This document shows, in pieces, positions 29,652 to 46,900 of a stretch of DNA of 64,000 bases. The stretch is from Candidatus Zixiibacteriota bacterium (GTDB taxonomy: Bacteria; Zixibacteria; MSB-5A5; WJJR01). The stretch covers positions 155,440-219,439 of the forward strand of contig JBFMGX010000004.1 of NCBI GenBank assembly GCA_040752595.1. Direction: 5' to 3'. The position numbers and the translations under genes are program-made. The notes beneath the pieces were generated by a model. That model saw only the letters and a program-made list of their open reading frames with translations. It was not told the origin of the DNA and did not search any database. Numbering within the stretch: the first letter of the stretch is position 1; every line of letters begins with the position of its first letter.

Positions 29652-32600
29652 GTGAACGTGCGCTGTCACCGCCATCGAGTCTTCTTGATTGCACTGGCCT
29701 GGATTCTTCGTGCCCTGCCTGCAGCTTCCGCTGGCGGGTATGATGACTGTTCGATTCTCTCCCTCTCCAACTCCAGCATAACGTTTGAGTACCGCCCCGG
29801 CGAACTTGCCTGGCGTACTGGACCTGCCGGAGAATACCCGGCACTGGCCAACGCTGCCCTGAATTCGACCCCCGGGTTTCCCCCAATACAAGGCCGTATC
29901 GTTTATGTCGCGTTGCCGCTTGGCTCCGCCGTTGTCGACGCGCAATTGATCGGTAGCGCTCCGTCAGAGCGGCTCGTTCGCCCCTCCATGTCGCGGGCCG
30001 CGCGCGGGTCGCTCGCCGCAGGGGCCGGTCCGTATCCCGATTCTCCGGTGGCCGTCGACCGGATCTTCACCATGCACGGCGTGCGGATGGCGCGGCTGAT
30101 CCTGCACCCGCTGACCGTGGTGTCGGCATCGGGTGAGGTCGAGTTTCGCCCCTCGTTGACTGTCCAGGTGCGCTTCGATCACGCGGGAGCAGAGACAGCG
30201 ACAGCAACCGTGCCCAATCCCGCGGACCCATTCGACCAGATCCTCGCGAATATCCTCATCAACCCGGAACAGGGGAGACTGTGGCGCTCGACCGACCCCA
30301 TCGACATGTCCCGCGCGGCAATCACCGACACCAATCCCTTCGTCGGCACGGATCAGTGGATTGCGATCCGTACCCGCGAAGAAGGTGTCGTCGCCGTGAC
30401 CGCCGCCGATTTCCGCTCGGGGGGAATCACCCCGGCCACGCTCGATCCGCGCAACTTCCGGCTGTTCGCCGGTTCCGGTCGGCAACTATCGACTTTGATG
30501 TCGTCCGCACCGCCCGGGTTGCGGCAGGTTCCTATCCGTATCATCGGTGAGGCCGATGGCACTTTCGATGAGACCGACTCCCTGCTTTTTTGGGCGCAGG
30601 GGCTCAATCGCTGGGAGCCCGGTGACAATGGCCGGCCGATTGACGTGGTCCACCGCTATGACCGGGACAACGTTTACTGGCTCGCCGCGGCGGGCGATTT
30701 CGCCGGTCCTCCCTTGCGACTGACCGCCACCGCGGCCCCGCCGCTTTCCGCTGCGACGGATCGTTTCGCCGGTACCAGCCGCGCCCGTCATGAAGAGGAC
30801 CACTTCTTCCGCGTCAACACGTTGGGCTACACGGAGAGCTACTACACGTGGTATTGGCGCAACCAGCGCGTCGGCAGCATCGCCCTCGATGCCGTCCATG
30901 ACCCCGTGGCCGGCGCCCCGGCCATGATCGAATTCGGTACCTTCGCCGGGTTCGCCGGGCGCGACCCCGCCCGCCTGGTGACCGGCGGCGTCAACTCCCT
31001 GCCCACGCGCCTGTATCCCGGAACCGGGGAGGACCGAAGCACCATCTCCCAGTTCGATCTGTCCGCCTTTGATCCGGCGGCGACCTTTGTCCTGGCGTTC
31101 GACTCGACTCCGTCGTCGAACTACTACCTCGACTACTATTCGATTGAATATCAACGGCGCCTCGACTGCGCCGATGGCGCGGTTGAGTTCCTGGCCCCCG
31201 ATACGAACGGGACGGTCAACTTCATCCTCGCCAACGCCGCCGATGCCGATGTCTGGGATGTGACCGACCCGGCCGGCCCATTCGCACTCAGCAGTCTGGC
31301 CGTCGACGGCAGCACCACCCGTTTTGGGACGGTGCTGGCGCAAGGTGCGCGCCGCGTCTTCTTTGCCGCCCGGCCGTCGCAGCGGCTGCGGCCGCAGAGT
31401 CTGCAACGGGTTACGACGGTCGACCTGCACACCCCGGCGACCGGCGCCGACTATGTCGCGATCGGCCCGCGCGCGTTCGCCGCGGCCACCGGAGCATTCC
31501 TGGACTATCGTGCCGTTCATGACGGCTTGCGTACGCGCTTTGTCGCGCTGGAGGATGTCTACAACAGCTTCTCCCTCGGCGTCGCCGATCCGGTCGCCAT
31601 CCGGCGCTTCCTGCGGCAGTGCCACTTCGGCTGGCCGTCACCGGCCCCTGTCTATGCGCTCTTGGTCGGTGATGGATCGAATGACTACCTCGACCGCACC
31701 GGGGCGCGCTCGGTCAACTACGTGCCGCCCTACATCGTCCGCGACGACAACGTGGTCTCCGATGAGAGCTATGTGTACTTCTCCGATGCCGCGGTCCTGA
31801 ATGCCGTGCCCAATCCCCAGGACAACCCGTTCCCCGATATGCTGATCGGGCGCTGGCCGGTGCGCACACAGGCGGAGATTGGCGCCGTCACGGCGAAGGT
31901 GCGCCGCTATGAGTCGACGGAGAACCTCGGCCCCTGGCGCTCCCGCATCATGATGGTGGCCGATGACGAATTCGGCGATCGCAATCTGGGGTCTGTCCGC
32001 GAGACCTTTCACATCAACGACGCCGAGCAGATCGCCCGCACGACGATTCCCGGTCGCTTCGATCTGGAGAAGATCTATCTGACAGAATATCCCTTCAACA
32101 ATCCGGGGTGCAACGATCCCAGCGCCCGCGGGTGCACCAAACCGATGGCCAAGGAAGCGATCATCGCCGGCCTCAATGACGGCGTCGCGGTCTTCGACTA
32201 CCTCGGGCACGGCAATCCCGATCTGTTGGCCCATGAACACGTTTTTGAGCGGGTGACCGATCTGCCCCGACTCGTGAATGCCACAACTCCGACTGCGGTG
32301 TTGACCTTCTCTTGCTCCATCGGGCTGTTCGACGACCCTGTGCGGGAGGGAATGTCGGAGGAGTGGTTCCGGATGTCACCCGGCGGGGCCGTAGCCGTGG
32401 TCTCCGCCACCCGGCTGGCCGCGGCGCTGGCCAATGCCGACTTGAACGAAGAGGTGTTCAACCTCCTGTTCACGCGCGGCATTACGGGGATCGGCGCGGC
32501 GGTGTATACCGGCAAGCTGCGCCGGCAGTATTTCGAACCGTCCTGCCGCCTCTTCAGCAACTGCCAGGCGCCGATTTGCCCCTGTCAGAATGATCGCGGC

Positions 32601-33704
32601 TATGTCCTCTTTGGCGATCCGGCGATGCGCTTGGGCATCCCCGATTTGCGTGTGCAATTCGATACCGTGCAGCCCGAGAGTCTGTCGGCTCTTGCGCTGA
32701 CGCGTGTTGCCGGTTGTATCACCGACACCGCCGGAACCCTCCAGTCGGGATTCGACGGTGAGGTCAGCATCATCGCGCGCGACGTCGATCGCCATCGGGT
32801 TCATGCGATCGACGCGACGACGTCGATCGAATACGATCTGGCGGGGGGCACCCTCTATCGCGGCCGCGTGCCGGTCCAGGGGGGACGATTCGCCTTCGGA
32901 TTCATCGTTCCCAAAGACATCGCCTACGGCGAACGGGGAGCGCGCATCATGGGTCACGCGGCCGCGGCCACGCGGATGGCCAACGGCAGTGTCGATTCGC
33001 TCTGGCTCTCCGGCACGGCGATCGCGCCCAGCGACACGTCCGGACCACAGGTGCGTTTGGAAACGACCCGCGGGGAACCGATTGTCGACGGTTTCACGTT
33101 GGCCGAAGGGTCTGGGGTCGTCGTCATGCTCTCCGACCCCTCGGGAATCAACCTCAGCGGCGCGCCGGGGCACCGGCTCCTGGTTACGGTCAACGACGGT
33201 GATCGTCCTTTCGCCGATCTCACCGACGTGTTTACTTACGATCCTGGGGTGTTCGACCGGGGGAGAGCCGACGTGTCTTTGGCGGGACTGGCGAAGGGAT
33301 CTCAACGGCTGACTGTCACCGGTTGGGACAACGCCAACAACTCCACCCGGCACGTGGTCGATGTCACGATCAGTAGCGCCGGGAGCGCCGACGAGTTCCG
33401 CGTGACTGAGTTCCTCAACTACCCCAATCCGTTCTCCGAACGGACGACGTTCTATTTTCGCGCCACGCGCGAAGTCCGCAGGGCGAAAATCCGGATTTTC
33501 ACGGTCGCCGGCCGCCTCATCTGGGAGACGGGGTCGGCCCGCGACGGCGAGGTCGAATGGAACGGCAGGGATGCGGCCGGTGATCCGGTCGGCAACGGCG
33601 TCTATCTGGCCCAACTGGAAGTCACCGGGCAACTGGTGTCATCGCAGGGAAAAGTGGTCGATAAGAGGGCATACAGAGAGGCCAAGTTGGTAGTATCACG
33701 GTGA
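29652..33704 (+). CDS. porU: PorU-like T9SS C-terminal signal peptidase (gingipain-type peptidase C25) with a C-terminal T9SS/FlgD-Ig-like sorting domain
   Basis: GTG start with signal peptide (VFLIALAWILRALPAASA). C25 catalytic region with His (VFDYLGHGNPDLLAHEH) and Cys (AVLTFSCSIGLFDD) motifs. C-terminal FLNYPNPFSERTTFYF...KIRIFTVAGRLIWE...GVYLAQLEV matches the T9SS CTD. Size (1350 aa) and adjacency to a PorV-like gene fit the porU-porV arrangement known from Bacteroidetes. Confidence 0.75.
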   Translation: MNVRCHRHRVFLIALAWILRALPAASAGGYDDCSILSLSNSSITFEYRPGELAWRTGPAGEYPALANAALNSTPGFPPIQGRIVYVALPLGSAVVDAQLIGSAPSERLVRPSMSRAARGSLAAGAGPYPDSPVAVDRIFTMHGVRMARLILHPLTVVSASGEVEFRPSLTVQVRFDHAGAETATATVPNPADPFDQILANILINPEQGRLWRSTDPIDMSRAAITDTNPFVGTDQWIAIRTREEGVVAVTAADFRSGGITPATLDPRNFRLFAGSGRQLSTLMSSAPPGLRQVPIRIIGEADGTFDETDSLLFWAQGLNRWEPGDNGRPIDVVHRYDRDNVYWLAAAGDFAGPPLRLTATAAPPLSAATDRFAGTSRARHEEDHFFRVNTLGYTESYYTWYWRNQRVGSIALDAVHDPVAGAPAMIEFGTFAGFAGRDPARLVTGGVNSLPTRLYPGTGEDRSTISQFDLSAFDPAATFVLAFDSTPSSNYYLDYYSIEYQRRLDCADGAVEFLAPDTNGTVNFILANAADADVWDVTDPAGPFALSSLAVDGSTTRFGTVLAQGARRVFFAARPSQRLRPQSLQRVTTVDLHTPATGADYVAIGPRAFAAATGAFLDYRAVHDGLRTRFVALEDVYNSFSLGVADPVAIRRFLRQCHFGWPSPAPVYALLVGDGSNDYLDRTGARSVNYVPPYIVRDDNVVSDESYVYFSDAAVLNAVPNPQDNPFPDMLIGRWPVRTQAEIGAVTAKVRRYESTENLGPWRSRIMMVADDEFGDRNLGSVRETFHINDAEQIARTTIPGRFDLEKIYLTEYPFNNPGCNDPSARGCTKPMAKEAIIAGLNDGVAVFDYLGHGNPDLLAHEHVFERVTDLPRLVNATTPTAVLTFSCSIGLFDDPVREGMSEEWFRMSPGGAVAVVSATRLAAALANADLNEEVFNLLFTRGITGIGAAVYTGKLRRQYFEPSCRLFSNCQAPICPCQNDRGYVLFGDPAMRLGIPDLRVQFDTVQPESLSALALTRVAGCITDTAGTLQSGFDGEVSIIARDVDRHRVHAIDATTSIEYDLAGGTLYRGRVPVQGGRFAFGFIVPKDIAYGERGARIMGHAAAATRMANGSVDSLWLSGTAIAPSDTSGPQVRLETTRGEPIVDGFTLAEGSGVVVMLSDPSGINLSGAPGHRLLVTVNDGDRPFADLTDVFTYDPGVFDRGRADVSLAGLAKGSQRLTVTGWDNANNSTRHVVDVTISSAGSADEFRVTEFLNYPNPFSERTTFYFRATREVRRAKIRIFTVAGRLIWETGSARDGEVEWNGRDAAGDPVGNGVYLAQLEVTGQLVSSQGKVVDKRAYREAKLVVSR

Positions 33705-33851
33705 AGGCCGATCCCGGCGGTTCCCGGCGAGAGTACCACGGAGCACCATATGAAGATCAGGAAGCATGCTCACATAAACGAGAACGGTCGCAGGCTGTCC
33801 CATGGGACACACGTCGGCGGATCGGTGGAAGGGGTACGACAGATGCAACGC

Positions 33852-36479
33852 ATGAAAACCGCGCTGGCGATGCTGATCGCACTGGCGCTGCTATGGCCGG
33901 CAACGACGGCGCGGGCCCAGGTGAACGCCGGTGTGCTGTTCTTGCGCATCGCGCCGGGAGCCCGTGCCGCGGGGATCGGGGAATCGTTCGTGGCGATGGC
34001 CAATGACGCGACGGCCACGCACTGGAACCCCGCCGGGCTGGGAACATATCCCCTCAACACCGAGTGGAGCGAGTATCCGCTCGCGCCGTCCGGCCAGGTG
34101 CTGGACGCCGTGCCGCTCAAGAATGGACTGCCCTACGACAACTTCACCGGGTATGACCTTTGGATCTTGACCGATTCCGGCCTGACAGTCTTCCATCCGT
34201 CGAGGGCCGCACAGCAAGTTAAGTCGGCCGCCGCGACCGGTTTCACCGCTCCCAGGGGCAACACGTTGGAGTTGTCGACCGACGGTGTCAGTTCCGTTTC
34301 GGCGGCCATCCTCCGCTACGCCCCCTTCATGACTGAGGACGAGGCGGAGACGATCGCCCGTCGATCGGCCGCCGGCGAAGTCGGCATTCCCCTCGCGGAG
34401 CTGGAACCGATGCTGGCACGCATCGGCGGGGCCATGCCGGAAGGGTACCGGGATCGCACGACGCTCGAAAACGTGATTCGTGAATTCAGGACGGCGTTTC
34501 TCGAGGGGAGAGTCGGGACCGATCGCCTCCCGGAGCTCCGCACTGCGATGGCGGCGTTGCCGGAGTCCGGTCCGGCCGACTTGTCCTTGTTGGATCGCAT
34601 CCGCTTCACGATGGAGCGCAGCGTGTCGTTGGTCCTGCCTCACACCATTCCCGTCCAGTTGAATGACCTGATCCGCCCCCCGGTACAGGCCATTGCATCC
34701 GATGGTAGCACGATCTATGTCGCCGCCAGCAACGGCCTCCTGCAATTCAACGGGGAACGCTGGGAAGTCGTGCCGCCGCCCGATGGGATCGATTGGAGGA
34801 CGACCCGGATCAATTGTCTGGCGGCCGCCGGCGGAAGACGTCTCTGGGTCGGCACTGACAGCGGCCTGTTGGCCCGGAGCTCCGGCCAATGGGAGACGAT
34901 CGGTTCCGATCGGGGGCTTCCCGATCCGCGTGTGCTGAAGATCACTCTCGCCGGATCTCGCGCCGGGTGGGTTCTCACCAACGCGGGGTTGGCCGCTTAT
35001 GACGGGAAGATGTTCTCCAGCACTGCGTCCGTGACCGCCAATGTCGGCGATTCGCTCCGCTCCGTCGTGGAGCGCTTCTTGGATACCGACGATGCGGTTG
35101 TGATCGGCCGTGCGTTGGAAGCCGTGCGTTCCGCCGGCGACATCCCCGCCGATACCGCGCCACTGGCCGGGAAGACCATTGCCATCCCCTATTCCCTGGG
35201 AATTCGTGGGGACGTGACCGGCATGGAACTCGACGCGTACGATCGCCTGTGGGTCGGGACGACGGTCGGGACATTCCGCTTCGGCAAGGGCCGATGGACC
35301 TCATTCGGATACGAGGCAGTTTTGGTCGAAGAGGCGACCACGGCCGAAGCGCTCGCCGAGTCCCGTCTCGGCAAGCGGGCAACACCGGAGAGAGTCCAGC
35401 GCCTCGCGGAATATGTCAAACTCTACAACAATCTGCCCGACGGCCAGATTCCCGCCGGTCGGACCGTGTACGTGTACCGCAACCCGGCCGGGGCGCACAT
35501 CCTCGACATGGCTGCCGCGGGCGATCAAATGCTGATCGCCACCGAGGTGGGACAACTGGAAGTCTCGTCCGGCCAGTGGAGCCGCTACTTTCATGGCGAG
35601 CTGGAACAGGATCAAGTACATGCGATCGTGGCCGAGGGCGGCGACGTGTGGTTTGTCACCGACAATCGCGTCGTCGTCTACCAGCATCCCCACAAAGAGA
35701 TCAGCTTCATGCATGTCAACTGGCTCCCCGAATTCAATCTCGACTTGTACTATGAGTACCTGACCTACGTCGCCAACATCGAGGGAATCGGCACGGTCGG
35801 CGCGGCGATCACGTTTCTTTCATACGGCGAAATCATCCGCACCGATGAACTCGGCAACGTCGGCAATCCCTTCCATTCCTTCGACGGCGCATTGTCCCTG
35901 TCCTATGGAACGCGCCTCAATCCCAATCTGGCCGCCGGTCTGTCGGCGAAGATCATCTACTCCCGTTTGGCCGATCAGGGCGCGGGAGCGGAGATCGGCT
36001 CGGGCAGCGCCACCGCCTTTGCCATGGACGCCGGTCTTCTCTATCGGACGCCGTGGCGACGGCTGACGCTCGGCGCCGCGCTCACCAACGTGGGGCCCAA
36101 CATCTCCTATATTGACGCCCAGCAGTCCGACCCATTGCCGCGCAACCTCGCGCTCGGCTTCGCCTACCGCATATGGGATTCGCCGTACAACCGGCTGACC
36201 ATCATTGGCGAGGCCAACAAGGAGCTTGTCGACCTGACCAGCAGCACCTCTGAGGAAGTGAAGCAGACCGTGTTCAACGGCGGCGCCGAGTACTGGTATG
36301 GATCGTTTGTGGCGCTGCGCGGCGGGTATATTTACGATCAGGACGGGGAAATCAAGACGGCGACGCTCGGCGCCGGTCTGTCGTACCAGCGCTTCGAGAT
36401 GGATGTCGCCTATATCCCCTCCAACAAAGACCTGCCGCTGGCCAACACGCTGCGTGTGAGCATGACGGGACGCTTTTGA
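33852..36479 (+). CDS. PorV/FadL-like outer-membrane beta-barrel carrying a large inserted two-component-regulator-propeller (Reg_prop-like) domain
   Basis: Signal peptide MKTALAMLIALALLWPATTARAQ. N-terminal barrel motif ARAAGIGESFVAMANDATATHWNPAGLG. C-terminal barrel strands ending ...NTLRVSMTGRF (terminal aromatic residue). The middle about 450 aa has repeated GxLxxFxGxxW-type motifs (IYVAASNGLLQFNGERWEVV, RLWVGTDSGLLARSSGQWETIG, WVLTNAGLAAYDGKMF, RLWVGTTVGTFRFGKGRWTSFG). Confidence 0.55.
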   Translation: MKTALAMLIALALLWPATTARAQVNAGVLFLRIAPGARAAGIGESFVAMANDATATHWNPAGLGTYPLNTEWSEYPLAPSGQVLDAVPLKNGLPYDNFTGYDLWILTDSGLTVFHPSRAAQQVKSAAATGFTAPRGNTLELSTDGVSSVSAAILRYAPFMTEDEAETIARRSAAGEVGIPLAELEPMLARIGGAMPEGYRDRTTLENVIREFRTAFLEGRVGTDRLPELRTAMAALPESGPADLSLLDRIRFTMERSVSLVLPHTIPVQLNDLIRPPVQAIASDGSTIYVAASNGLLQFNGERWEVVPPPDGIDWRTTRINCLAAAGGRRLWVGTDSGLLARSSGQWETIGSDRGLPDPRVLKITLAGSRAGWVLTNAGLAAYDGKMFSSTASVTANVGDSLRSVVERFLDTDDAVVIGRALEAVRSAGDIPADTAPLAGKTIAIPYSLGIRGDVTGMELDAYDRLWVGTTVGTFRFGKGRWTSFGYEAVLVEEATTAEALAESRLGKRATPERVQRLAEYVKLYNNLPDGQIPAGRTVYVYRNPAGAHILDMAAAGDQMLIATEVGQLEVSSGQWSRYFHGELEQDQVHAIVAEGGDVWFVTDNRVVVYQHPHKEISFMHVNWLPEFNLDLYYEYLTYVANIEGIGTVGAAITFLSYGEIIRTDELGNVGNPFHSFDGALSLSYGTRLNPNLAAGLSAKIIYSRLADQGAGAEIGSGSATAFAMDAGLLYRTPWRRLTLGAALTNVGPNISYIDAQQSDPLPRNLALGFAYRIWDSPYNRLTIIGEANKELVDLTSSTSEEVKQTVFNGGAEYWYGSFVALRGGYIYDQDGEIKTATLGAGLSYQRFEMDVAYIPSNKDLPLANTLRVSMTGRF

Positions 36480-36541
36480 AGACAGCAGGGATCATGGGAC
36501 CGCGCGCCCGGCTCATGTGCATTCCGCTGGTGAGGGCAGTG

Positions 36542-36645
36542 TTAACCTCTCCCACCGGCACTGTCCCGAACAGAGTGAGGGAGAGAGGTCGATACGCCAT
36601 AGGCGGATCGGCTTGCACTGAGCGAAGTCGAAGTGGTGAGGGGGA
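36542..36645. repeat. Family-5 composite hairpin element in the leader of the M6 peptidase gene
   Basis: ttaaCCTCTCCCaccggcactgtcccgaacagagtGAGGGAGAGAGGtcg + atacgccataggcggatcgg + cttgcactgagcgaagtcgaagtggtgaggggg. Confidence 0.6.
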
Positions 36646-36670
36646 AGCCCCGTTTCAAGTGGGACCAGCG

Positions 36671-39600
36671 ATGTGGCAGTATTCGCGAAATCTTCTGCTT
36701 CTTGCCGTCGCGGCAATATGGCCATCCTGCCCCCATGCGGCGGCAACCTGGAATACGGCGGCGCACGTCGTCCACTTGGACCGTGGTGCCTTGGTGATCG
36801 ACACGACGATGCGCGCCGAATCTTCATCGCGCCGTTGCTTTTGCCCGGTGCCGTCGGAGCGCAATCTCCTCGGGCTCCGGCGGGACACACCGGTTTCTTC
36901 CGGGCGGCTGGCAGCCGGGATGCCGGCACAGGAACCGACGGTGCTGCGGGTCGTCGCGATTCGCGTCGAGTTCCCGTTGGAATCTCCCGATGATCCGCTG
37001 ACCACCGGCACCGGGCGATTCGACCGCCGCGATACGATCGCCTATCGGGATTCGAACGGTCACTCCTTCGACAGCGCGCCGCACACCAAGCGCTACTTCG
37101 AGGCGCATCTGCGAGCGCTCAATGCCTACTGGAACACCGTGTCCAACGATCATCTGCGTCTGGAATGGGCGGTGTTTCCCGAGGATTCCGACGCGGCGTA
37201 TCAGTTGCCGAACCCGATGTCCCACTACGGTCGCACGCGAGGGGACGACTCCGGCGTGGTTTGGGGACTGCAGCAGTTCGTGATAGACGCCGCCGAAGCT
37301 GCCGCTGCCGATCCTGACTTGCATTTCCCCGACTATGATGCCGTGATCATCTTCCACGCCGGCGCCGATCGGCAGACTGACATCGCGGATGACACACCGC
37401 ATGATCTCTTCTCGGCATTTCTCCGACTGGACAAACCATACATCAGCCGTCCCCCCGGAGGCATGGCACAGCCGATCCTGTTGCGTGCCGGGGCGGATAC
37501 GCTGAGCGAAGCGATCATCATGCCCGAAACGATGATCCAGGACGGCCGCATCAGTGTGCTCAATGCCGTACTCGCGCACGAGTTCGGTCATCAGTTGGGA
37601 CTGGTCGACTTGTACAACACCTACAACGGTGCCACGTGTGTCGGCAATTTCTCCCTGATGGACAACAACGCCGCCGATGTCGGCATCGAGGCCGAAGTCG
37701 ATGGGAGAGCGCGCATCATCTTCGGCGCGCTGCCGGTTCTGCCTGATCCTTGGTCTCGTGCCTACCTCGGATTTGTTGACGTGGCGACCGTCACCGATTC
37801 CAGCAATGTCCCCGTCTGGGCGGCCGAAGATCTGGAAGTCGTCCCGTCCAATCGTCAGGTCTGGCGCGTGCCCATCTCGCAGAGCGAGTACTATCTGCTG
37901 GAGAACCGCCTGTACGATCTCGACGGCGATGAAGCCGCGGGGCTGCGCCTCGACTCGGCAACCAACGTTGTCCTTGGCCCTGCCGACACGGCGCTGATCC
38001 CCGGTGTCCCGCCGCAGTTGACGCGGGAATACGATTTCCTTCTCCCCGGCAACGGGCTGCTGATCTGGCATGTCGATGAGGGGGTGGCGGCGCTCGATTA
38101 CGTGACCGCTGATGATGCGCCCGACAACTTCCTCGCCAACACACTACAATGGGATGACAACCGACGCTTCGTGCGCGTGATCGAAGCGGACGGACTCTCG
38201 CAGCTCGGCGCCCCGGGGATCTTCCGTTACTATACGGGCAGTGCAGGAGACTACTATTACCGCCCGCACAACATGGAGCTCAGTCCCACCACGATCCCCC
38301 CGGCCAAGAGCTACACCGGCGGGTACACCGGCGTCCGCATCAGCAACATCTCCGTGCCCGGAAGAACCATGCTCTTCCATGTAACGACGGCCGGCACGCT
38401 TCCCGGATTCCCGATCTACGTCGGTAACCAATCCGGCGACGTCGGCGCGCCGATTATCACCGACATCAAGCGCTCCGTGGCCGGCGATTGGCGCACTCCC
38501 GGCGATGGTCGGCCCGAGGTCTTTCTCGGTTATGAAAATTACATCCTCGCCTATGCTTGGGATGGCGCGTCGCTCGCGGGCATCCAAGTCCAGGATTCAA
38601 CTCTCGGCTTCGACACGACCGCTACGTTGAAGTCACTTCGCGCCGTCGCTGTCGGCAACCCCGACGACGGCGGGTGGGTATCGGCGCCGCTCATCTACAA
38701 TGTCCCCGATCAGTTTAGCACGCTCGTTGCCGTTTCCCGCGCCGGGCGCGTCTACGCCTGGCGGATGCAGGATGCTGACGGAGACAGTCTGTTCGATACG
38801 CTCTTCGTACGCCGGGCCGTCGGAGCCCCCAGCGGTCCGCCGATCATCTGGGACCGCCCCGGTAGCACATCGTTGAAGGACTTGTATCTCCCGATCAACG
38901 GCGCCTTCTACAATCTGTTTCATCTCGACGACGGTGTCCGGGAGATCAACGTCGCTCCCGGCGTGATCCGCAGCACCGCGGGAACAGGTCCGCAAAACGC
39001 GATGATGGTCTTCAACCTCGACGGCTCCTGGTTCGTGTCGCGGTTCGACGGTGAACAACGGGTCGCAATGGGGAGCGACTCACTCATGACACCTGCGCTC
39101 GGCGACGTCGACCATGATGGTCGGCTTGACTACGCTGTCGTCACGGCGGCCGGGCGGTTGTGGGTCCTGGATTCCACCTTGAATGTCGCGTCGGACTTCC
39201 CCGTTGAAATGGGATTCACCCCTTCGTCGGCCCCGGTTCTCGCCGACGTCGACCGCGATGGATACCTCGACATTGTGGTCGCCGGCGAAGGCATGCTCCA
39301 TGCCTATGCACGAAACGGCACGCCTCTTTCCAATTTCCCGATCACGATCGGCCGCAGCAATGAGCCGGATTCGCTCGCACCGGCCGCCGCCATCATTGAT
39401 ATGGGCAACACCCAGAGTCTGGCGTTGCTGACCGGCGGAGCCAGTCGCGCCATCTATGGCTGGGATAAGCAGGGCGAACGACTGGCACAGATGCCGCGTC
39501 CGGTCGGGTCTGCGCTGACTGCTCCGGTCGCTTGGGCGCTCAACAGCGACGAGGCCACAGCGGCCATCTTCGCGCGTGCCGCGGACGGGTATCTCTATGC

Positions 39601-40009
39601 CTTCAACCTTCCCGTTCCTGCGACCGAGGCTGCTCGTGCCATCTGGCCGATGGCGGGGCGTGATCCCCGACACACTGCCACGGTACCGACTGATGAACTG
39701 GAACCGCTGGTCACGCCGACTCAGTTCTTCGTCAGCGAACGTGCCTATGTCTATCCCAATCCGGCCAGCGACCGCGCGATTGTACGCTATTGGCTCGGCG
39801 ATGATGCCACAGTCAGCATCCGCATCTATGACTTGGCCGGCAATCTCATCACCGAGGCAGATGGTCCCGGCGTCGGCGGTGTCTACAACGAGTGGACTTG
39901 GTCTTGCGCCCAGGCGGCATCGGGAGTTTACTTCGCGCGGCTGGAAGTGACCCGGCGCGCGGGCGGACAGACGGAGACGGCATTCTGCAAATTGGCGGTG
40001 GTGCAATGA
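36671..40009 (+). CDS. M6 (immune inhibitor A-like) zinc metallopeptidase with FG-GAP repeats and a C-terminal T9SS sorting domain
   Basis: ATG at 36671 with signal peptide (LLLLAVAAIWPSCPHAAA). HEFGHQLGLVDLYN zinc-binding motif, as in InhA/M6. FG-GAP-type repeats (LGDVDHDGRLDYAVVT, LADVDRDGYLDIVVAG). C-terminal CTD: YVYPNPASDRAIVRYWL...IRIYDLAGNLI...GVYFARLEV. Confidence 0.8.
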   Translation: MWQYSRNLLLLAVAAIWPSCPHAAATWNTAAHVVHLDRGALVIDTTMRAESSSRRCFCPVPSERNLLGLRRDTPVSSGRLAAGMPAQEPTVLRVVAIRVEFPLESPDDPLTTGTGRFDRRDTIAYRDSNGHSFDSAPHTKRYFEAHLRALNAYWNTVSNDHLRLEWAVFPEDSDAAYQLPNPMSHYGRTRGDDSGVVWGLQQFVIDAAEAAAADPDLHFPDYDAVIIFHAGADRQTDIADDTPHDLFSAFLRLDKPYISRPPGGMAQPILLRAGADTLSEAIIMPETMIQDGRISVLNAVLAHEFGHQLGLVDLYNTYNGATCVGNFSLMDNNAADVGIEAEVDGRARIIFGALPVLPDPWSRAYLGFVDVATVTDSSNVPVWAAEDLEVVPSNRQVWRVPISQSEYYLLENRLYDLDGDEAAGLRLDSATNVVLGPADTALIPGVPPQLTREYDFLLPGNGLLIWHVDEGVAALDYVTADDAPDNFLANTLQWDDNRRFVRVIEADGLSQLGAPGIFRYYTGSAGDYYYRPHNMELSPTTIPPAKSYTGGYTGVRISNISVPGRTMLFHVTTAGTLPGFPIYVGNQSGDVGAPIITDIKRSVAGDWRTPGDGRPEVFLGYENYILAYAWDGASLAGIQVQDSTLGFDTTATLKSLRAVAVGNPDDGGWVSAPLIYNVPDQFSTLVAVSRAGRVYAWRMQDADGDSLFDTLFVRRAVGAPSGPPIIWDRPGSTSLKDLYLPINGAFYNLFHLDDGVREINVAPGVIRSTAGTGPQNAMMVFNLDGSWFVSRFDGEQRVAMGSDSLMTPALGDVDHDGRLDYAVVTAAGRLWVLDSTLNVASDFPVEMGFTPSSAPVLADVDRDGYLDIVVAGEGMLHAYARNGTPLSNFPITIGRSNEPDSLAPAAAIIDMGNTQSLALLTGGASRAIYGWDKQGERLAQMPRPVGSALTAPVAWALNSDEATAAIFARAADGYLYAFNLPVPATEAARAIWPMAGRDPRHTATVPTDELEPLVTPTQFFVSERAYVYPNPASDRAIVRYWLGDDATVSIRIYDLAGNLITEADGPGVGGVYNEWTWSCAQAASGVYFARLEVTRRAGGQTETAFCKLAVVQ

Positions 40010-40053: not shown

Positions 40054-40667
40054 GTAGGGGCACGGCGTGCCGTGCCCGCTCATGGTGCGCGGTGAACACC
40101 AATCACACATTGCCTCATCGCCGCTCCGTGCGCATAGCCGGGTACGACTACACACGCGCAGGGGCGTATTTCGTCACGATTTGTACACGCGATCGCGCCT
40201 GTATCTTGGGCGATGTCGTGGATGGGACCGTGCATTTGAATCCCCTTGGGTGCGCCGCTCGTCACGAATGGATGGTGATACCGACACACCATCCGCAGGT
40301 TGTGCTGGATGTGTTCGTGGTCATGCCCAACCACGTGCACGGGATCATCATTCTCTCCCATCCGTCGGGCACGGCACGCCGTGCCCCTACAGAGGAACGA
40401 TTCGCACGTCCCGTTGCGGGCTCACTGCCGACCATCGTACGCGCCTTCAAATCGGCATCGACCCGATCGATCAACCTCCTGCGCCGCACACCCGGAGCCG
40501 CCGTCTGGCAACGCAATTACTACGAACACGTAATACGCAACGAAGACGAACTGCTCCGTGCGCGAGAATACATCGTGAACAACCCTCTGCGATGGTCCCT
40601 GGATCGCGATAACCCAGACGTCATCGCCCCACGTGCATTATCTGTAGGGCTGCGGCCTGCCGTGCCC
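40054..40667 (+). mobile_element. REP-RAYT unit: REP-associated tyrosine transposase gene bracketed by its cognate REP (family 1) copies
   Basis: REP GTAGGGGCACGGCGTGCCGTGCCC at 40054-77 (forward), 40367-90 (reverse complement, inside the ORF) and 40644-67 (forward, degenerate, overlapping the 3-prime end of the ORF). Unlinked copies at 20725 and 42000. Confidence 0.7.
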
Positions 40668-40673
40668 TCATGA
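40092..40673 (+). CDS. REP-associated tyrosine transposase (RAYT; IS200/IS605-like Y1 HUH transposase)
   Basis: YDYTRAGAYFVTICTRDR N-terminal motif; HUH motif VVMPNHVHGII; catalytic-Tyr region AVWQRNYYEHVIRNEDELLRAREYIVNNPLRW. GTG start at 40092. Confidence 0.8.
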   Translation: MNTNHTLPHRRSVRIAGYDYTRAGAYFVTICTRDRACILGDVVDGTVHLNPLGCAARHEWMVIPTHHPQVVLDVFVVMPNHVHGIIILSHPSGTARRAPTEERFARPVAGSLPTIVRAFKSASTRSINLLRRTPGAAVWQRNYYEHVIRNEDELLRAREYIVNNPLRWSLDRDNPDVIAPRALSVGLRPAVPS

Positions 40674-40683: not shown

Positions 40684-41688
40684 GTGAAACCGGATCGACA
40701 TGCACGAATCTGGATCGTAATGACGGTCGTGGCAGCCGCCTTGACAATCACCACCAAGGCCGCCTGTGCCACCGGCTCGCTTGAGACCACGGATCTCGCG
40801 CTTGAGCGCGCGACTTGGCAACAACCGATCCTCCTCTCGATGACGGCGACATCCGAGCCTGCTGCGCCGCTGTTGGCCCAGGCCACCGGCGATGAGCCGG
40901 TCGATGTCTATGGCTTCAAGAAGAAAAGCCCGCGGCGCGCCTTCCTGCAGTCGTTCCTCATTCCCGGTTGGGGCCAGTGGTACAACGGCTCGCGCATCAA
41001 GCCGTTTCTCTTTCTCGGGCTGGAGGCGGCGGGATGGTACGGGGTGTCCCATTTCCACAGCAAGGGAGTGGACAGGGAGGACGAATACGTGGCGTACGCC
41101 GACGCGCACTGGGACAGTACGAGGTATTTTGCCGGCCTGCGCCGCGTCTTCTATCCGACCGAGCAATTTCCTCCCGACTATGACCAGCGGCTGATGGACA
41201 CCCGGATCTACACGTACATCGATGATACCGACTCGCTGCGAAGCAAGACCTTCTCCCACCACGCGTATTTTAAGGACACGCTCGGTACCGTGAAAGTCCC
41301 AAAGGGCGAGTACTACGAGAACGTCGGCAAGTACAGCCAGTTCAACTTCGGATGGGATGACTACCGATACACGGTCGACAGCGTCTCGCCCACCCCCGAC
41401 AGCCTCCCGACCGGACCCACCGACACCGCGCGCTTCAATCTCATCTCGGCCAACCGCCGCCACTATCTGAAGCTGCGTGACGACGCCAACAAGGAATACA
41501 AACGCGCCTCGACGATGCTGGTCGCCACCATCGCGAATCACCTTCTGTCGGCATTTGAAGCTGCGATTGGAGCGCGACGCTACAACCGGGCCCAGGACCG
41601 ATTCGGCACCGTGGACCACCAGATTCGTCTGGTCCGTGGCTCCGATGGCAAGCTCATGCCGCGCGTTACCGTGGCGTATCGATTCTGA
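40684..41688 (+). CDS. Secreted hypothetical protein with a LIPGWGQWYNG motif (possibly DUF5683-like); first of two tandem paralogs
   Basis: RBS gaaggagga precedes the GTG at 40684. Signal peptide MKPDRHARIWIVMTVVAAALTITTKAACA. Paralog 41824..42683 shares LIPGWGQWYNG / LILPGAGQWYAG and a downstream block. Confidence 0.55.
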   Translation: MKPDRHARIWIVMTVVAAALTITTKAACATGSLETTDLALERATWQQPILLSMTATSEPAAPLLAQATGDEPVDVYGFKKKSPRRAFLQSFLIPGWGQWYNGSRIKPFLFLGLEAAGWYGVSHFHSKGVDREDEYVAYADAHWDSTRYFAGLRRVFYPTEQFPPDYDQRLMDTRIYTYIDDTDSLRSKTFSHHAYFKDTLGTVKVPKGEYYENVGKYSQFNFGWDDYRYTVDSVSPTPDSLPTGPTDTARFNLISANRRHYLKLRDDANKEYKRASTMLVATIANHLLSAFEAAIGARRYNRAQDRFGTVDHQIRLVRGSDGKLMPRVTVAYRF

Positions 41689-41735
41689 CAGCCGTGAGAT
41701 CGAGAGCATCACACATGGTCGACGTCGGACGAGCA

Positions 41736-41816: not shown

Positions 41817-41823
41817 ATATTAA

Positions 41824-42683
41824 GTGTGCTTGTCCCGGTACTGGCTCTCGTAGTATGCTCCTCTGCGACATGTCGGGCCGATCAACAGCCGGCCTTGCCC
41901 GTTCCAGACACGACAGGGCTTGTAGGGTGCGTGCTCAGCACGCACCGTCAGGGGGCTGGAAACCCTCTGTCCGCAATCGATAACGATCCGCTGGCAATCG
42001 TAGGGGCACGCCCTGCCGTGCCCGTCTTCTCCCCGGTAAGCGCGCTCGCTCGACCACGCACGGAACGCGACAGTGAGTTCGGCACCGAAGACCGGGACAA
42101 GGTCAACGTGACACGCGCCGTGGCGTATTCGCTCATACTCCCCGGCGCCGGGCAGTGGTATGCCGGTGCCAAGGGCCGTGCCGGCGTCTTCCTCGTCGGC
42201 GAAGCTGCGACGTGGACTCTGTTTGGGTACTTCCGTACTGTCAGCAGCATCAAAGAAGACAGCTATCAGTCCTACGCTCGTGTTCATGCCGGAATCGACC
42301 CAGCCGGTAAGAGCGTTGATTTCTATCGCCTGATCACCTTCTATGAATCGCGGGATGAATACAATGAATACGGTCGCCTCTTGGCACCGGGGCGACCATA
42401 CTACCCGGATAGCCCGGTCTGGGACTGGCAATGGGATTCCCAGGCGGCGATGCGACGCTATCGCACCCTCCGCAATCAGAAAAGCGAGGCCGACAATCGC
42501 GCTCGCTTCACGCTCGGTGCCGCTGTCGTCGACCGACTGATCGCCGCCATCGACGCCTGGCGGACCGCCCGGTCGGCCAATCGCCGTGCGCGCATGGAGA
42601 CGTCACAGTGGAAGGTGCACCTGAAAGGCGTTCCCAGTCTGGATCACCCGGCATTCGGACTGGTTCTTTCCCGGCAATTCTGA
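41824..42683 (+). CDS. Second GWGQWY-motif paralog (secreted hypothetical)
   Basis: Start tentatively the GTG at 41824 (VLVPVLALVVCSSATC signal-like segment). The ORF-track start at 41694 runs through the repeat. Contains an in-frame REP-1 copy at 42000-42023 coding AIVGARPAVP. Confidence 0.5.
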
Positions 42684-42760: not shown

Positions 42761-43720
42761 GTGATACTGCTGATGCTCGGCTGTGCCGGGTCTTCGTCGT
42801 TCGTGACACCGCAGGTGACGCCGACCTCCGAGTTGCTTGTCATTTCAATCATCGACCGCGACTACCTCGAACGTCTATCGAACCGTATACCGGGGACAGC
42901 GACACCGGTTTCCACAGAAGCGTTCGAGCCCCTGTCGATGGCATTGTCCGGCGACGATGCACTGGTAATCGCCGACCCCGCTGGTGGCCGACTCTGGTCA
43001 CTGGCCGGACCGGGCGGCGGTGACGGTCGGCTGCGACCGCTGCTGGCGGCGGGTATCACGCCGCATCCGCCTGGTTTTGTGCGCATGGACCGTCTGGGAA
43101 ATGTCTTTGTCACCGGCGTCGAGACCGGGGCGGTCACGATCTGTGATCCGCGGCTCCACCCGGTCGGCAGTATCGCGGCGCCGTACGGGGCGCTTGGCTT
43201 GGTCATCGGCCGACCGGTCGGGATCGCCTTTGGTCTCCAGGGGGAATGCTACGTTTCGGATCAGACGAATGCCTTGGTGCATCATTTCGATGCCGCCGGT
43301 GGTTTCGTGGCATCCTTCGGCGGTCCCGATGCCGGTTGGGGACGAGTGCTGCGCCCCGAGGGCCTCGACTGCTCGCCCGACGGCAACGAAATCTACGTTT
43401 GTGATCCCGGCACAAGACGCGTTCTCGTGTATGATCCCGCTGGCGTGCCGTTGCGCGAGATCGGCGGCACCGACCTGATCGAGCCGCGGAGCGTCGCTGT
43501 GGACCGCCGCGGCCAGTGTTTTGTCGCCGATCCGGGAGCGAAGGCCGTGATGGTGTTTGCCGCTAACGGTCGTTGGATCCGGACCCTGACCGGACTGCCC
43601 CCTGCCATCGAGCGTTTCAGCGCGCCGTGCGACGTCGCGGTGGTGGATTCGGTGATCTGGATTGCCGACGCCTCGGCCGGGAAGATCGTCGCGGTCACTC
43701 TCCGGCCTCCGCATCCGTGA
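42761..43720 (+). CDS. NHL-repeat beta-propeller lipoprotein
   Basis: Lipobox VILLMLGCAGS. NHL-type repeats: GNVFVTGVETGAVTICDP, GECYVSDQTNALVHHFDAAG, NEIYVCDPGTRRVLVYDPAG, GQCFVADPGAKAVMVFAANG, DSVIWIADASAGKIVAV. Start uncertain (GTG 42761 or ATG 42773). Confidence 0.6.
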   Translation: MILLMLGCAGSSSFVTPQVTPTSELLVISIIDRDYLERLSNRIPGTATPVSTEAFEPLSMALSGDDALVIADPAGGRLWSLAGPGGGDGRLRPLLAAGITPHPPGFVRMDRLGNVFVTGVETGAVTICDPRLHPVGSIAAPYGALGLVIGRPVGIAFGLQGECYVSDQTNALVHHFDAAGGFVASFGGPDAGWGRVLRPEGLDCSPDGNEIYVCDPGTRRVLVYDPAGVPLREIGGTDLIEPRSVAVDRRGQCFVADPGAKAVMVFAANGRWIRTLTGLPPAIERFSAPCDVAVVDSVIWIADASAGKIVAVTLRPPHP

Positions 43721-43890: not shown

Positions 43891-43925
43891 GGGTGAGGGA
43901 TCTCCCTCGTCGCCTCATTCCGCTG

Positions 43926-46900
43926 GTGGCTTCCATGGTGTTGGTTACTACCGCACCGGTCCGGGCCTCGGACTCACCGATCGTCCGCGACAGCGTCAGC
44001 ATTCCGGGCCGGGACGCCACCGGACCGTACTGGTTCTCCGGCTTTTTCGTCATGGCGGCCTCGGAGAGCGTCGCCGTCGGCGCGCATCGACTGCGCCGTG
44101 AAGACGACTACGAGATCGACTATAATCACGGCACGATTGCGTTCACGCGCCCGCTGACGCGGAGCGACACGGCCCTTGTTCGTTTCCGGCGGCTCGGTTT
44201 TGCCTTGTCCTCCCGATGGCGGACGGCAGCGATCATTCGACCGTCATCCAGCCCATCGGCACCGGGTTCAGGGTCGGATGGGCTCATTCCCGTCGCCGCA
44301 CATGTCGCTGGGGCGCCGACTCTGCCGATCTTCCCGTCGACAGCAACAGCGAGCGCCGATCCTTCCCCCGGGAATGCCCGCTGGCAGGGGTTTAAGTCGC
44401 TGTCGTTCTCGGCGGCCGATCACGGCGGGCGCGACTGGTCGCAGGGCTTGGAGCTGTCGGTCGATGGTGAGCTGACCCCTGGACTGCAGCTTGCGGCGGC
44501 AATCAGCGATCGTGCCGTCGCGGGTGCGGACACCAGGGGTGGAAGCTCGGACGGCGTTCGGATCGGAACGTTGGACAGACTGTTCATCGAGGCGCGCTCC
44601 GCCCGGTTTCGCGGGCGATGGGGTGAGTTGTCACTGTCCGATCGTGCCTTCGGGGAAGCGCCGCGTCGTGCCACCGGCATGCAGTTGACTTGGGCCAATG
44701 CCGGCCACGCTGTGGGCGGTACCATCGCTCGTCCACACGGCGAGTGGCGACAGCGGCGAATCACTCTGCGCGCGGAAGAATCCGGCCCCTACCGTTTGTT
44801 GGAAACGCCGGTCTGGAAGGGGATCGTCCCCGGGTCGATCACGCTGTGGCTCGATGGCCAGCGGCTCGAAGAGGGTGACAACCGTGACTACTCCGTGGAT
44901 TGGGGACGCGGAACGATCACGATCAATCCCCGCCGGTCGTTCGGAGCCCACTCGATTCTGATCGCCGAGTACGAGGAGGCGCTGGACACCTATGAGCGTA
45001 CACTGGTGGAGTCGCATTGGTCGTGGGCCGATTCCCAGGGGCGGCCCCGGCACTCGTTGGCGCTCGATTGGGAGGGTGATGATCCTTCGTCGCCTCTGTC
45101 CGGGACGCTGACGGAATCGCAGCGGACTCATTTGGCCAACGACCCGTCCGGGAGCGTGCGTCTGCCGACCGCCGAGCATGTGACCGACGGCCAGGGGGAT
45201 TATCGGCGCGACGTTCTGACCGATGGCGATACCGCGTACGTCTACGTCGGTCCCGGACAGGGTGCGTGGCGCGTGCGTTTCCAGTGGGTCGGCGCGCGGA
45301 ATGGGCGCTACCGGCACATCGCCGATGAGGCCTATGAATACGTCGGCAGGGGAGGAGGCGACTTCGAACCCACGGTCGCCGTCGACGCGCCGAAATCCCG
45401 ATGGGACGTTTCCGAGTCGCTCCATCTCCCGGTCGGGGCGACCGGTCGGTTCTCGGCCGATTGGCGCGGCGCCGCTATCGATCACAACCGGCTCGCATCG
45501 GGCACCGCCGACTTGTCCTCCAGCCATGCGCTGGGTCTCCATCTGGGTGCAGCCGATGCCGATCGACTCGGTGCCCTCGACGCGCAATGGTTGCACAATG
45601 ACGGTCTGAACACCCTATCGCGTCCCGGCCTCGCCGGGGGGCTCGATCGCTTGGCCGCTGTGTGGGGATTGCGTTCATCCCTTCTCGATTCCTCGTCCGA
45701 TGATCTCGACTTGACGACATCCATCCCCTTGGGCGGTGCCAATGGCCTGCGCCTGGCGGGCGGGCTATGGCACGACCGGCAGATTGCCGCCTGGCGCGGC
45801 TTGCTCGGGACCCGGATTGTGCCCATCCACTCCCTTCAACTGGACGCCGAATGGAACCATCGCGTCGCGCGACGCGACGACCGCTCTGCCGGTCGCAACG
45901 ACTCCTACGCGTCGGCACTGCGTCTGTCGCCGCGCTGGGGGACATTCGGCGTTGGCTGGCGGCAGCAGGACTGCGACAATGCCAACGACGCCTTCGAGAC
46001 GGCGACGCCGTATGCGGCGTCCCGCTGGGCGACGGCGTCGGTCGCGGGAGTCACGCTGCGGCAGTCCTGGGATAGAACCCAGGACACGGTCGGTCTGATC
46101 CGTCGGTCCCGGGAACTGGCGGGATTCTGCCCGGTCGCGCTGCTCGGTGGTCGCCAGGGTGGCGGGCTCACGGTCGCGCGGGGTGAGCGGGCATGGAGTG
46201 GGGGTGCATATACCCCATATTATCGCGGACAACTGGATGGGCGCTGGACGCCGTCGCCGTCGGCCGCTGTTCAGTTGGGGATGACGCTGTCGCACCAGAG
46301 CGTCGGTTTACAGCGCGAACGATTTCTGCCGACCCGTCCCGGTTACGGGCAGTATCGCTATGAACGCGGCGAGTACATCCCCGATCCGCACGGCGACTTC
46401 CGACGTGTTCTCGTGGAAGATCCCGATGCCGGTGCGACCGCCTACCAGGGCGACAAGCATCTTGTGCTTTCGTGGTGGCCCGAGTGGCAAGGATGGCGCT
46501 GGTCCGTTGACTTGCAGCGCGACGTCCAGGGCCGCTATGCGACCGCCACATTCCAGCCGGGCGCGTGGGCTGTCCCTTGGACCACGCGTGAATCCTCTCT
46601 CGCGCCCGGAGCCCAATTGTCGGTTCGCGACGCGCACAGAGTGAGCGCGCGGCCCGACGAACGCACGGAGATCAGCGCCACCTTCGGTCGCGAGCGCACG
46701 GTCTTTGCACCCGTAACCCAGGCAGAAAACGCCGCCGCCAACATCAATCAGTCGCGTCGCGCCGAGTTCCGCATCCGACGCGCGATCGGCGGTGGGTTCT
46801 CATTGGAATCCACGGCGCGATATGAACGCCGGGAACGGGGAGGAGGGACCTCCGGTGCCTGGGATGCGGACGCGCGCACGCTTCTGGCCGCGGTCAGAAG

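Follow-up and report, generated by a model that had tools for sequence, protein, structure and literature searches.

PorV is currently seen as a small barrel of about 40 kDa that collects type IX secretion system (T9SS) cargo at the SprA translocon and then moves by diffusion in the outer membrane to the sortase complex of PorU. According to the shuttle model, excess PorV diffuses freely in the outer membrane (PMC5562754). In Flavobacterium johnsoniae, the release of the carrier-substrate complex is an energy-requiring step, and a helix of SkpA contacts the periplasmic base of PorV (PMC10994853). PorE of Porphyromonas gingivalis, a lipoprotein of the periplasm with a tether to the outer membrane, is composed of tetratricopeptide repeats (TPR), a propeller, a carboxypeptidase regulatory domain (CRD) and a peptidoglycan-binding OmpA_C domain (PMC5053529). 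It associates with PorP, a 14-strand barrel of the FadL family (PMC9143113). In this study, we analyzed a 64-kb stretch of DNA from a Candidatus Zixiibacteriota bacterium (hereafter the window), and in particular the locus at positions 29652-40009, in which three co-directional open reading frames (ORFs) on the forward strand (29652-33704, 33750-36479, and 36476-40009) encode a PorU sortase, an unusually long PorV-family protein and an M6-type metalloprotease. We consider it fairly probable (roughly 60%) that the first two genes form the porU-porV module of a Zixibacteria T9SS and that its PorV carries a built-in periplasmic scaffold which probably binds peptidoglycan and would be comparable to the separate lipoprotein PorE. 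The PorV family and its partners are known; new is the propeller/LysM-type insert, predicted to be periplasmic, between the hatch and the barrel, which is fixed across the phylum.

The long PorV-family gene is annotated as a 909-aa ORF. Its probable start is M32 (ATG at 33843), which gives a protein of about 878 aa; M32 is an invariant column in an alignment of 88 homologs. A signal peptide is found at about residues 32-56, corresponding to a helix at residues 26-47 in the AlphaFold model. The protein scores 249.4 bits against the PorV/PorQ family model NF033709 (cut-off 90) and 69.6 bits against PF19572 (cut-off 27), and the Pfam PorV match (E 4e-19) falls in separate pieces. The homology is split between residues ~62-99 and 646-906 for NF033709. 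A phmmer search with the same protein hits F. johnsoniae PorV (6h3i_F) with an E-value of 4.8e-20 in three pieces flanking the insert, with residues 45-96 corresponding to 13-64 of the chain and residues 651-909 to 74-395. The score for PorV exceeds that for PorQ (176.1 vs 90.4 bits; PorQ cut-off 220), and the PorV2 model NF052325 is not reached (39.6 bits vs 325). NCBI lists an identical 909-aa protein under the name ‘PorV/PorQ family protein’; it stems from a metagenome-assembled genome (MAG) of Candidatus Zixiibacteriota, a phylum within the Fibrobacteres-Chlorobi-Bacteroidetes (FCB) group, in agreement with an earlier reading of the letters alone (the sequence-only reading), according to which this is no classical Bacteroidetes genome.

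The AlphaFold model of the long PorV (predicted local distance difference test, pLDDT, 87.3; predicted TM-score, pTM, 0.83) gives F. johnsoniae PorV as the first match in a Foldseek search of the PDB (8gl6_F, E 4.4e-17, and 6h3i_F; target-normalised TM-score 0.61-0.63), followed by sensor propellers of hybrid two-component systems (HTCS) and later by FadL, TodX, and TbuX. The structural features of PorV proper are thus present, namely a 14-strand FadL-type barrel and an N-terminal NPA hatch matching the solved PorV. The hatch of the FadL family plugs the barrel from the periplasmic side. In our model it consists of short helices (residues 62-100) bearing the invariant motif HWNPAGLGxYPL. No other segment of the protein is as well conserved (mean top-residue frequency 0.90, the measure used for all segments below). 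Residues N93, P94, G96, L97, G98, Y100, P101, and L102 are invariant in the 88 sequences, and the FadL hatch mutants ‘delta NPA’ and ‘delta N8’ are among the structural neighbors found by Foldseek. The sequence-only reading had proposed a PorV of more than twice the usual size, caused by a propeller-type insert between an NPAGL segment and the barrel, and both the split matches and the model agree with this. It had taken the NPAGL segment for a part of the barrel, however, where the segment is the FadL-type hatch and contributes no barrel strand.

The insert has a size of about 545 aa, because the PorV matches, both to the profile and to F. johnsoniae PorV, split at its flanks. The propeller-like nature first suggested for it was correct, and the length of ~450 aa estimated at that time was somewhat too short. 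Most of the insert is modeled with a pLDDT above 90, and its seven four-stranded blades are located at residues ~105-148, 299-340, 354-384, 395-429, 489-525, 584-612, and 625-645. Foldseek relates it to the HTCS sensor propellers BT4673, BT4663, and BT3049 (E 5e-11 to 1e-9; the entries 3va6, 4a2l, 3ott, and 3v9f at E 5e-11 to 5e-10). The Pfam Reg_prop model (PF07494) gives 19.5 bits in the window copy against a cut-off of 20.4, and 22-48 bits in orthologs. The seven modeled blades, the fold matches to HTCS proteins and the Pfam scores of the orthologs together assign the insert to the Reg_prop propellers. A phmmer search of 1.84 billion representative sequences yielded full-length matches to the insert only within long PorV proteins of 850-1050 aa, the remaining matches being generic Reg_prop repeats. 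Since the full-length matches all lie in proteins of the same architecture, no free-standing form of the insert was found in this set. Profile searches of the insert gave no matches to TPR, CarboxypepD_reg or OmpA domains, and there is no lipobox.

The side of the membrane on which the insert resides is indicated by the way it is connected. It joins the hatch and the first barrel strand (S1) by two linkers of four residues each, one between the end of the hatch (residue 100) and the first blade (residue 105), the other between the last propeller strand at 640-645 and S1 at 650-657. The insertion point is thus located between the hatch and S1 and not in an inter-strand loop. Outer-membrane barrels have a periplasmic C-terminus, short periplasmic turns and long external loops. 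The barrel has 14 strands and a C-terminal aromatic residue (...GRF), which places the N-terminal end of S1 on the face of the C-terminus, i.e., the periplasmic one. On the face where S1 starts, the connections S2/3, S4/5, S6/7, S8/9, S10/11, and S12/13 are 2-5 residues long in the model. Five out of seven connections on the opposite face count 9-16 residues, and S3/S4 is a 5-residue turn on a hairpin of 18-21 residues. The loop 193-199 of F. johnsoniae PorV, which has been described as periplasmic and touches SkpA (PMC10994853), aligns to residues ~765-771 of the long PorV; these form the S6/S7 turn, which shares its face with the insert junction. In addition, the 4-residue linkers are too short to span the membrane. 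We strongly infer from these rules and this alignment that the insert would lie on the periplasmic face.

Two LysM-fold modules are located between blades of the propeller. The Pfam LysM model (PF01476, cut-off 20.9) is passed in six out of ten orthologs and every match maps to one of the two module sites, with five of the six matches (24.5-39.7 bits) spanning a whole module. Matches at the first site are found in P0032, P0106, and P0094 (31-40 bits), those at the second site in P0037 and P0076 (24.5 and 31.7 bits). The LysM signatures GD..L, YN.L, and GQ are retained in the family consensus, which argues for a retained glycan-binding role. The conservation amounts to 0.60-0.66 for blade 1 and blades 5-7, 0.54 for blades 2-4 and 0.53-0.57 for the LysM modules. 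The best-conserved parts of the insert are the barrel-adjacent blades 1, 6, and 7, which fits a rigid dock beneath the barrel. The lowest conservation of the whole protein (0.42) is that of the helical sub-domain (residues 150-291 in the layout of the model), which the two lineages L042 and L064 lack altogether.

To place this architecture, one genome per GTDB species was scanned, which gave 232 genomes with a relative; all statements on architecture concern the best 80 of these 232. They belong to Zixibacteria, including the founding RBG-1 genome, or are MAGs loosely labeled as Ignavibacteria, Acidobacteriota or ‘bacterium’. All 80 carry the long form and the fusion is therefore not an artefact of gene fusion or assembly, a possibility that can be set aside. 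The domain layout is common to all of them, except that two lack the helical domain and some carry additional insertions, and the lengths of the sub-domains are nearly constant. About 190 extra residues near blade 1 result in forms of ~1,050 aa (L027, L033, L035, L038, L041, L045, L048, L051, L052, L054-L056, L059, and L062), and another group has an expanded LysM module 1 of 90-120 aa. We found no second PorV-like gene in the window, nor within 10 kb on either side of the gene in the 80 genomes. The databases label these proteins as ‘PorV/PorQ family protein’, ‘hypothetical protein’ or, in one case, ‘ligand-binding sensor domain-containing protein’. In the literature searched, no paper was found on Zixibacteria and T9SS or type IX secretion, and nothing was found on PorU2/PorV2.

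The coordinates of the locus, the parts of its proteins and the neighboring genes are given in Table 1.

Table 1. Features of the porU-porV locus and its downstream region. Positions refer to the window; CTD, C-terminal domain; HMM, hidden Markov model; REP, repetitive extragenic palindromic; RAYT, REP-associated tyrosine transposase.
Feature	Position	Strand	Basis
porU, T9SS sortase of the C25 cysteine peptidase type, itself bearing a T9SS domain at the C-terminus	29652..33704	+	NF033707, Peptidase_C25, CTD HMM
Long PorV-family gene, 909-aa ORF	33750..36479	+	NF033709, Pfam PorV, PDB 6h3i_F, AlphaFold, Foldseek
FadL-type hatch, residues 57-100	33918..34049	+	Aligned with F. johnsoniae PorV 13-64
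Insert of ~545 aa, residues 101-646, 7-bladed Reg_prop-type beta-propeller, predicted periplasmic	34050..35687	+	AlphaFold, Foldseek
Helical sub-domain that follows blade 1 as an insertion, residues 150-295	34197..34634	+	Seven helices in model
LysM-fold module 1, residues 428-480, between blades	35031..35189	+	Beta-alpha-alpha-beta in model; Pfam LysM in orthologs
LysM-fold module 2, residues 524-576, between blades	35319..35477	+	Beta-alpha-alpha-beta in model; Pfam LysM in orthologs
14-strand PorV barrel, residues 647-909, ending ...MTGRF	35688..36479	+	Model strands 650-908; F. johnsoniae PorV 74-395
REP-like palindromic repeats in the porV-M6 spacer, spuriously translated in the ORF from 36476	36540..36642		Repeat families D2, D4
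M6-type zinc metalloprotease with FG-GAP repeats and type-A T9SS CTD	36671..40009	+	Pfam/NCBIfam, motif
RAYT-like (IS200/Y1 transposase-like) ORF, window-specific insertion between M6 and DUF5683	40092..40673	+	Y1_Tnp, TnpA-REP, repeat D8
DUF5683-family protein, same position in 58 loci	40684..41688	+	PF18935 28.6 bits vs 26.7
DUF5683 paralog, start uncertain, ORF opens at 41694 in a REP-like repeat	41826..42683	+	hhalign probability 99.95, E 6.6e-38, against the DUF5683 alignment
NHL-repeat beta-propeller and probable lipoprotein (VILLMLGC...) of uncertain start	42761..43720	+	NHL and SGL Pfam; ScyF-like 57.9 bits
Giant outer-membrane beta-barrel, ~1,107 aa, last cluster member, NCBI AB1792_01205 (hypothetical)	43935..47258	+	AlphaFold, Foldseek

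The upstream neighbor of the long PorV is a canonical PorU of 1350 aa. It scores 571.6 bits against the NCBIfam model ‘T9SS sortase PorU’ (NF033707, cut-off 420) and contains a complete Pfam Peptidase_C25 domain (1-374 of 374, E 2.3e-69); the PorU2 model NF052324 is not reached (118 bits, cut-off 450). Residues 1256-1327 match an HMM derived from the CTDs of the M6 orthologs with an E-value of 5.8e-9, and the PorU orthologs match it as well. The curated CTD models respond weakly to PorU (Por_Secre_tail 15.7-19.5 bits, below the cut-offs). The gene order was read in 81 loci, over 10 kb on either side of the orthologs, and porU lies upstream of porV in 79 of them; in the window, porU runs to 33704 and is followed by porV from 33750 or from 33843. 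The porU-porV sortase pair recognized in the sequence-only reading is thus supported by scores above the cut-offs of both NF033707 and NF033709.

Downstream of porV, 77 of the 81 loci contain the gene for the M6 metalloprotease. Its ORF opens at 36476. As codons 1-65 are merely the translation of a REP-like repeat, the probable start is M66 (ATG at nt 36671). The protein passes Pfam Peptidase_M6 (PF05547; 24.7 bits, cut-off 22), contains an FG-GAP_3 match of 37.2 bits, stays below the cut-off of TIGR03296 (71.7 vs 110.8 bits) and ends in a CTD at nt ~39746-40006 (TIGR04183; 26.9 bits vs 23; residues 1092-1157 of 1177), so that an M6 protease with a T9SS CTD, as anticipated earlier for this gene, is indeed encoded here. 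The matches of the three ORFs by far exceed what chance would give. The sequence HEFGHQLGLVD (nt 37577-37609, residues 368-378; HExxHxxGxxD) is intact. HExxH is present in all 58 full-length orthologs (58/58), and 57 of the 58 also keep the Asp ligand that follows the second His at a distance of six residues. NF052323, a family of T9SS-dependent inactivated M6-like proteins, scores 329 bits against a cut-off of 600, only over profile positions 39-547 and on the catalytic half of the protein, which is not a member. Unlike that ‘inactivated’ family, the enzyme has an intact and conserved active site and is therefore predicted to be active. Its synteny in 77/81 loci and its conserved HExxH mark the protease as more than an incidental cargo. 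We also found nine further ORFs matching the M6-CTD HMM in flanking Zixibacteria DNA, always with the CTD at the extreme C-terminus, two of which appear to be split M6 fragments. These ORFs point indirectly to a cargo repertoire and, as indirectly, to a complete T9SS in these bacteria.

We propose the following mode of action for the module. By homology, the outer loops of the barrel would bind the type-A CTDs of the cargo and hold PorU, which would remove the CTD and attach the cargo to the surface, with the adjacent M6 protease as a constant cargo. The topology suggests that the insert hangs rigidly from the periplasmic rim of the barrel on its two short linkers. The LysM modules may then bind the glycan strands of peptidoglycan, with the propeller acting as a docking platform, which is the least certain step. 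In this manner, the carrier-sortase complex would be connected with the cell wall as well as with periplasmic components of the machinery. A PorV in such a wall-tied complex would be unlikely to diffuse freely like the shuttle proposed for Bacteroidota, and a wall-tethered carrier conflicts with the free diffusion that the shuttle model assumes (PMC5562754).

Compared to the known systems, the long PorV resembles F. johnsoniae PorV (LptO; 6H3I/8GL6 chain F) in its 14-strand FadL-family barrel, its NPA hatch, the adjacent porU and a neighboring cargo with a type-A CTD. It differs in length (878-909 aa vs a 402-aa chain) and in the 545-aa propeller/LysM/helical insert on the periplasmic side. 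In PorE (PG1058) and PorP of P. gingivalis, a periplasmic propeller and a peptidoglycan-binding module lie beneath a 14-strand FadL-family barrel and have been proposed to form a scaffold linking the outer membrane and the cell wall (PMC5053529, PMC9143113); the insert, with its predicted periplasmic propeller and putative peptidoglycan-binding modules, most likely works in a similar way. PorE, however, exists as a lipoprotein of its own that has TPR, CRD, and OmpA_C domains, whereas here the module is fused, of the LysM type, with a Reg_prop-type propeller and a PorV-like barrel. No sequence homology to PorE was detected for the insert and the likeness is one of functional analogy. The HTCS proteins BT4663, BT4673, and BT3049 have the same 7-bladed Reg_prop fold in the periplasm, and the propellers of PorZ also adopt this fold. 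Compared with these, the long PorV has one propeller in place of two, lacks a Y_Y_Y domain and a kinase, and bears LysM-fold and helical insertions between blades; PorZ, in addition, resides on the surface and carries a CTD, and there is no significant match to its models. The inverse autotransporters intimin and invasin combine an outer-membrane barrel with periplasmic LysM that tethers it to peptidoglycan. Intimin has an unrelated barrel family, a LysM that is N-terminal and not inserted in a propeller, and a functional passenger that is extracellular. The PorU2/PorV2/M6-like trio (NF052324, NF052325, and NF052323), a linkage inferred from the model names, comprises the same three protein types. 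The scores here stay below the cut-offs, PorU is canonical and the M6 site is intact and not inactivated.

Several observations weigh against the proposed wall-tied PorV. The PorV score of 176.1 bits, obtained in three stretches, misses the cut-off of 250 of the PorV equivalog model NF033710. Both LysM modules of the window copy are degenerate, with no significant Pfam match, and module 1 does not contain the YNxL motif (module 2 keeps it as YNNL). LysM domains can also bind glycans other than peptidoglycan. PorZ shares the Reg_prop fold though it is a surface protein, and its model PF21544 gives 21-23 bits (cut-off 27) in two orthologs. The periplasmic placement is based on topology rules and alignment, and all source genomes are uncultured MAGs.

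The best surviving alternative, which we nevertheless rate as unlikely, assigns the periplasmic propeller mainly a role as docking site or receptor for CTD cargo or partners, replacing the SprE/PorW-Skp-PorD ‘dish’ of the extended translocon, or as a handle by which the PorLM/GldLM motor would pull the loaded carrier from the translocon. Reg_prop propellers are ligand-binding sensor domains in the HTCS proteins, which is in line with such a role, as are the degeneration of the LysM modules in the window copy and a conservation of the blades that equals or exceeds that of the LysM modules. The same holds for the contact of SkpA with the periplasmic base of PorV and the energy-requiring release in F. 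johnsoniae (PMC10994853). The LysM signature is kept in the family consensus, though, and there is no identified partner and no cargo-binding site that can be named. A dock or handle is compatible with a PorV that binds peptidoglycan and does not exclude it.

Far less probable is the position on the surface that the sequence-only reading had put forward, with the propeller as an insert in an extracellular loop that recognizes cargo or senses the environment. Propellers of this type do occur on the surface in PorZ (PMC5121618) and the extracellular loops of PorV bind cargo (PMC10994853). An insert between the hatch and S1, the strand parity, the lengths of turns and loops, the linkers and the alignment with F. 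johnsoniae PorV all contradict this position and direct the insert to the periplasmic face, and there is no second membrane-crossing segment to return the chain. A surface-exposed loop insertion was therefore rejected on topology.

We hold it to be just as improbable that the protein is a fused equivalent of PorQ and PorZ, in which a PorQ-like barrel bears a PorZ-like propeller that supplies PorU with the anchoring glycolipid. The propellers of PorZ resemble BT4663, PorZ and the barrel PorQ are partners in the attachment complex, and weak matches to PorZ exist (NF052228, 13.7 bits here; PF21544, 21-23 bits in two orthologs). These scores are far below the cut-offs (260 and 27, respectively), the barrel favors PorV over PorQ (176 vs 90 bits), the protein has just one propeller and lacks a CTD, and glycolipid could not be handed over to a sortase on the surface from a periplasmic position. 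The identity as PorZ-like protein or PorQ-PorZ fusion was ruled out by these low scores and the wrong location. Least credible of all is a FadL-like channel for hydrophobic compounds with a periplasmic sensor domain, placed beside a C25 peptidase by chance: the structural neighbors FadL, TodX, and TbuX and the NPA motif typical of FadL channels would suit it, but the PorV models and the solved PorV match best by a wide margin, the neighbor passes the PorU equivalog cut-off, PorU and the next gene carry T9SS CTDs, and the trio is syntenic across the phylum.

The three genes belong to a larger cluster with the conserved order porU, porV, M6, DUF5683, a DUF5683 paralog, (NHL) and a giant barrel of ~1,100 aa. 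From this conserved gene order it follows that the unit extends to ~47258, beyond the three genes initially delimited. Among the 81 loci, porU is present in 79, the long porV in 81, M6 in 77, DUF5683 in 58, its paralog in 57, NHL in 32 and the giant barrel in 47; most of the missing genes are explained by contig ends. The two DUF5683 paralogs share the motif KSxxKAxxLSxxxPGxGQxY and a C-terminal Phe. A scan for promoters and terminators in the cluster gave counts at chance level. Within the 64-kb window, we found none of the T9SS components SprA, PorK/L/M/N (GldK/L/M/N), PorW/SprE, and PorT.

The giant barrel probably starts at nt 43935, the start given by NCBI, in a longer ORF that opens at 43761. 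AlphaFold models it with ~40 long strands at medium confidence (pLDDT 68, pTM 0.46). The Foldseek matches are barrels of a generic kind; SprA (6h3i_A) ranks eighth among them (TMq 0.25) and is inseparable from BtuB-type barrels. Both the window protein and seven out of nine orthologs give 16-30 bits with the SprA model TIGR04189 (cut-off 200), only at profile positions 597-654, and a profile search of the PDB sequences yielded no SprA match. The protein contains two copies of a ‘GPYxL...IVPGSExVxLDG..L.RG.DYxIDY..G.ITF’ domain, for which there is a weak match to a single segment of the SprA model. The score stays below the TIGR04189 cut-off and the match covers a sub-domain of ~50 aa instead of the 36-strand barrel, which makes SprA/Sov a possible relative at most. 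Three more distant relatives of the giant barrel do not adjoin porU/porV. The giant barrel may be a compact translocon. A bolder idea, which we regard as quite doubtful, is that of a stationary T9SS hub tethered to peptidoglycan, in which the fused propeller would replace the PorE/PorW/Skp scaffold or serve as motor handle, and in which the reduced barrel would be the translocon of a compact, self-contained outer-membrane module together with the DUF5683 pair and the NHL lipoprotein.

The GC content is 57-66% across the whole window (in 2-kb windows). The window contains dispersed palindromic repeats of the REP or miniature inverted-repeat transposable element (MITE) type, which belong to several families, are 30-110 nt long and lie between genes (1074-1178, 12048-12121, 15401-15505, 36540-36642, and 41734-41838; further ones at 43757-43923, 48922-49029, 54202-54314, and 55376-55487). 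The families D2 and D4 of the porV-M6 spacer have further copies at 1074, 12048, 15401, 41734, 43819, and 48922. The ORFs from 36476 and 43761 share the N-terminal peptide ‘SPTGTVPNRVRERGR’, an oddity that is explained by both ORFs opening inside REP-like repeats (36540-36642 and 43757-43923). The RAYT-like ORF is bracketed by D8, a GC-rich palindromic repeat of 26 nt (40054-40079 and 40644-40669; also at 20725 and 42000), and it is absent at this position in the 81 related loci, where two weak off-position matches of 22-24% identity were found. Its matches are low (Y1_Tnp 19.7 bits, below the cut-off of 23; TnpA-REP 4er8, E 0.11). The presence of REPs and a RAYT, as first suggested, thus holds for the REP-like repeats and more weakly for the RAYT-like ORF, given this sub-threshold Y1_Tnp score.

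Other genes in the window are described here for completeness. The 983-aa ORF at 1073-4024 (+) has a Peptidase_MA-like domain together with PD40 propeller repeats of the TolB type, and it ends in a barrel of the Omp85 family; it represents another outer-membrane barrel with a large periplasmic propeller, and its start overlaps a REP-like repeat. A S8 subtilase with a PKD domain (25888-28263, -) is located upstream of porU on the opposite strand. This position is kept only in the closest relatives (7 loci), and no T9SS CTD was detected in the subtilase. At 50948-59713 (+), we found a Bat (Bacteroides aerotolerance)-type operon with a MoxR AAA ATPase, DUF58/VWA, DUF4381 and BatD-like proteins, which is typical of the FCB group.

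The architecture described here is hidden by the public annotation, and its carriers are uncultured, so that heterologous or in vitro tests are needed. The T9SS sortase module, with a conserved M6 cargo of intact active site, is extended to the Zixibacteria. How the periplasmic motor and scaffold communicate with PorV is an open question in T9SS research, for which a phylum-wide PorV with a 60-kDa periplasmic propeller and LysM-type modules represents a natural experiment. The carrier, the wall anchor and the periplasmic platform would, as our analysis suggests, be united in one polypeptide, which predicts an immobile carrier-sortase complex and suggests that a functional interface lies at the base of PorV on the periplasmic side.

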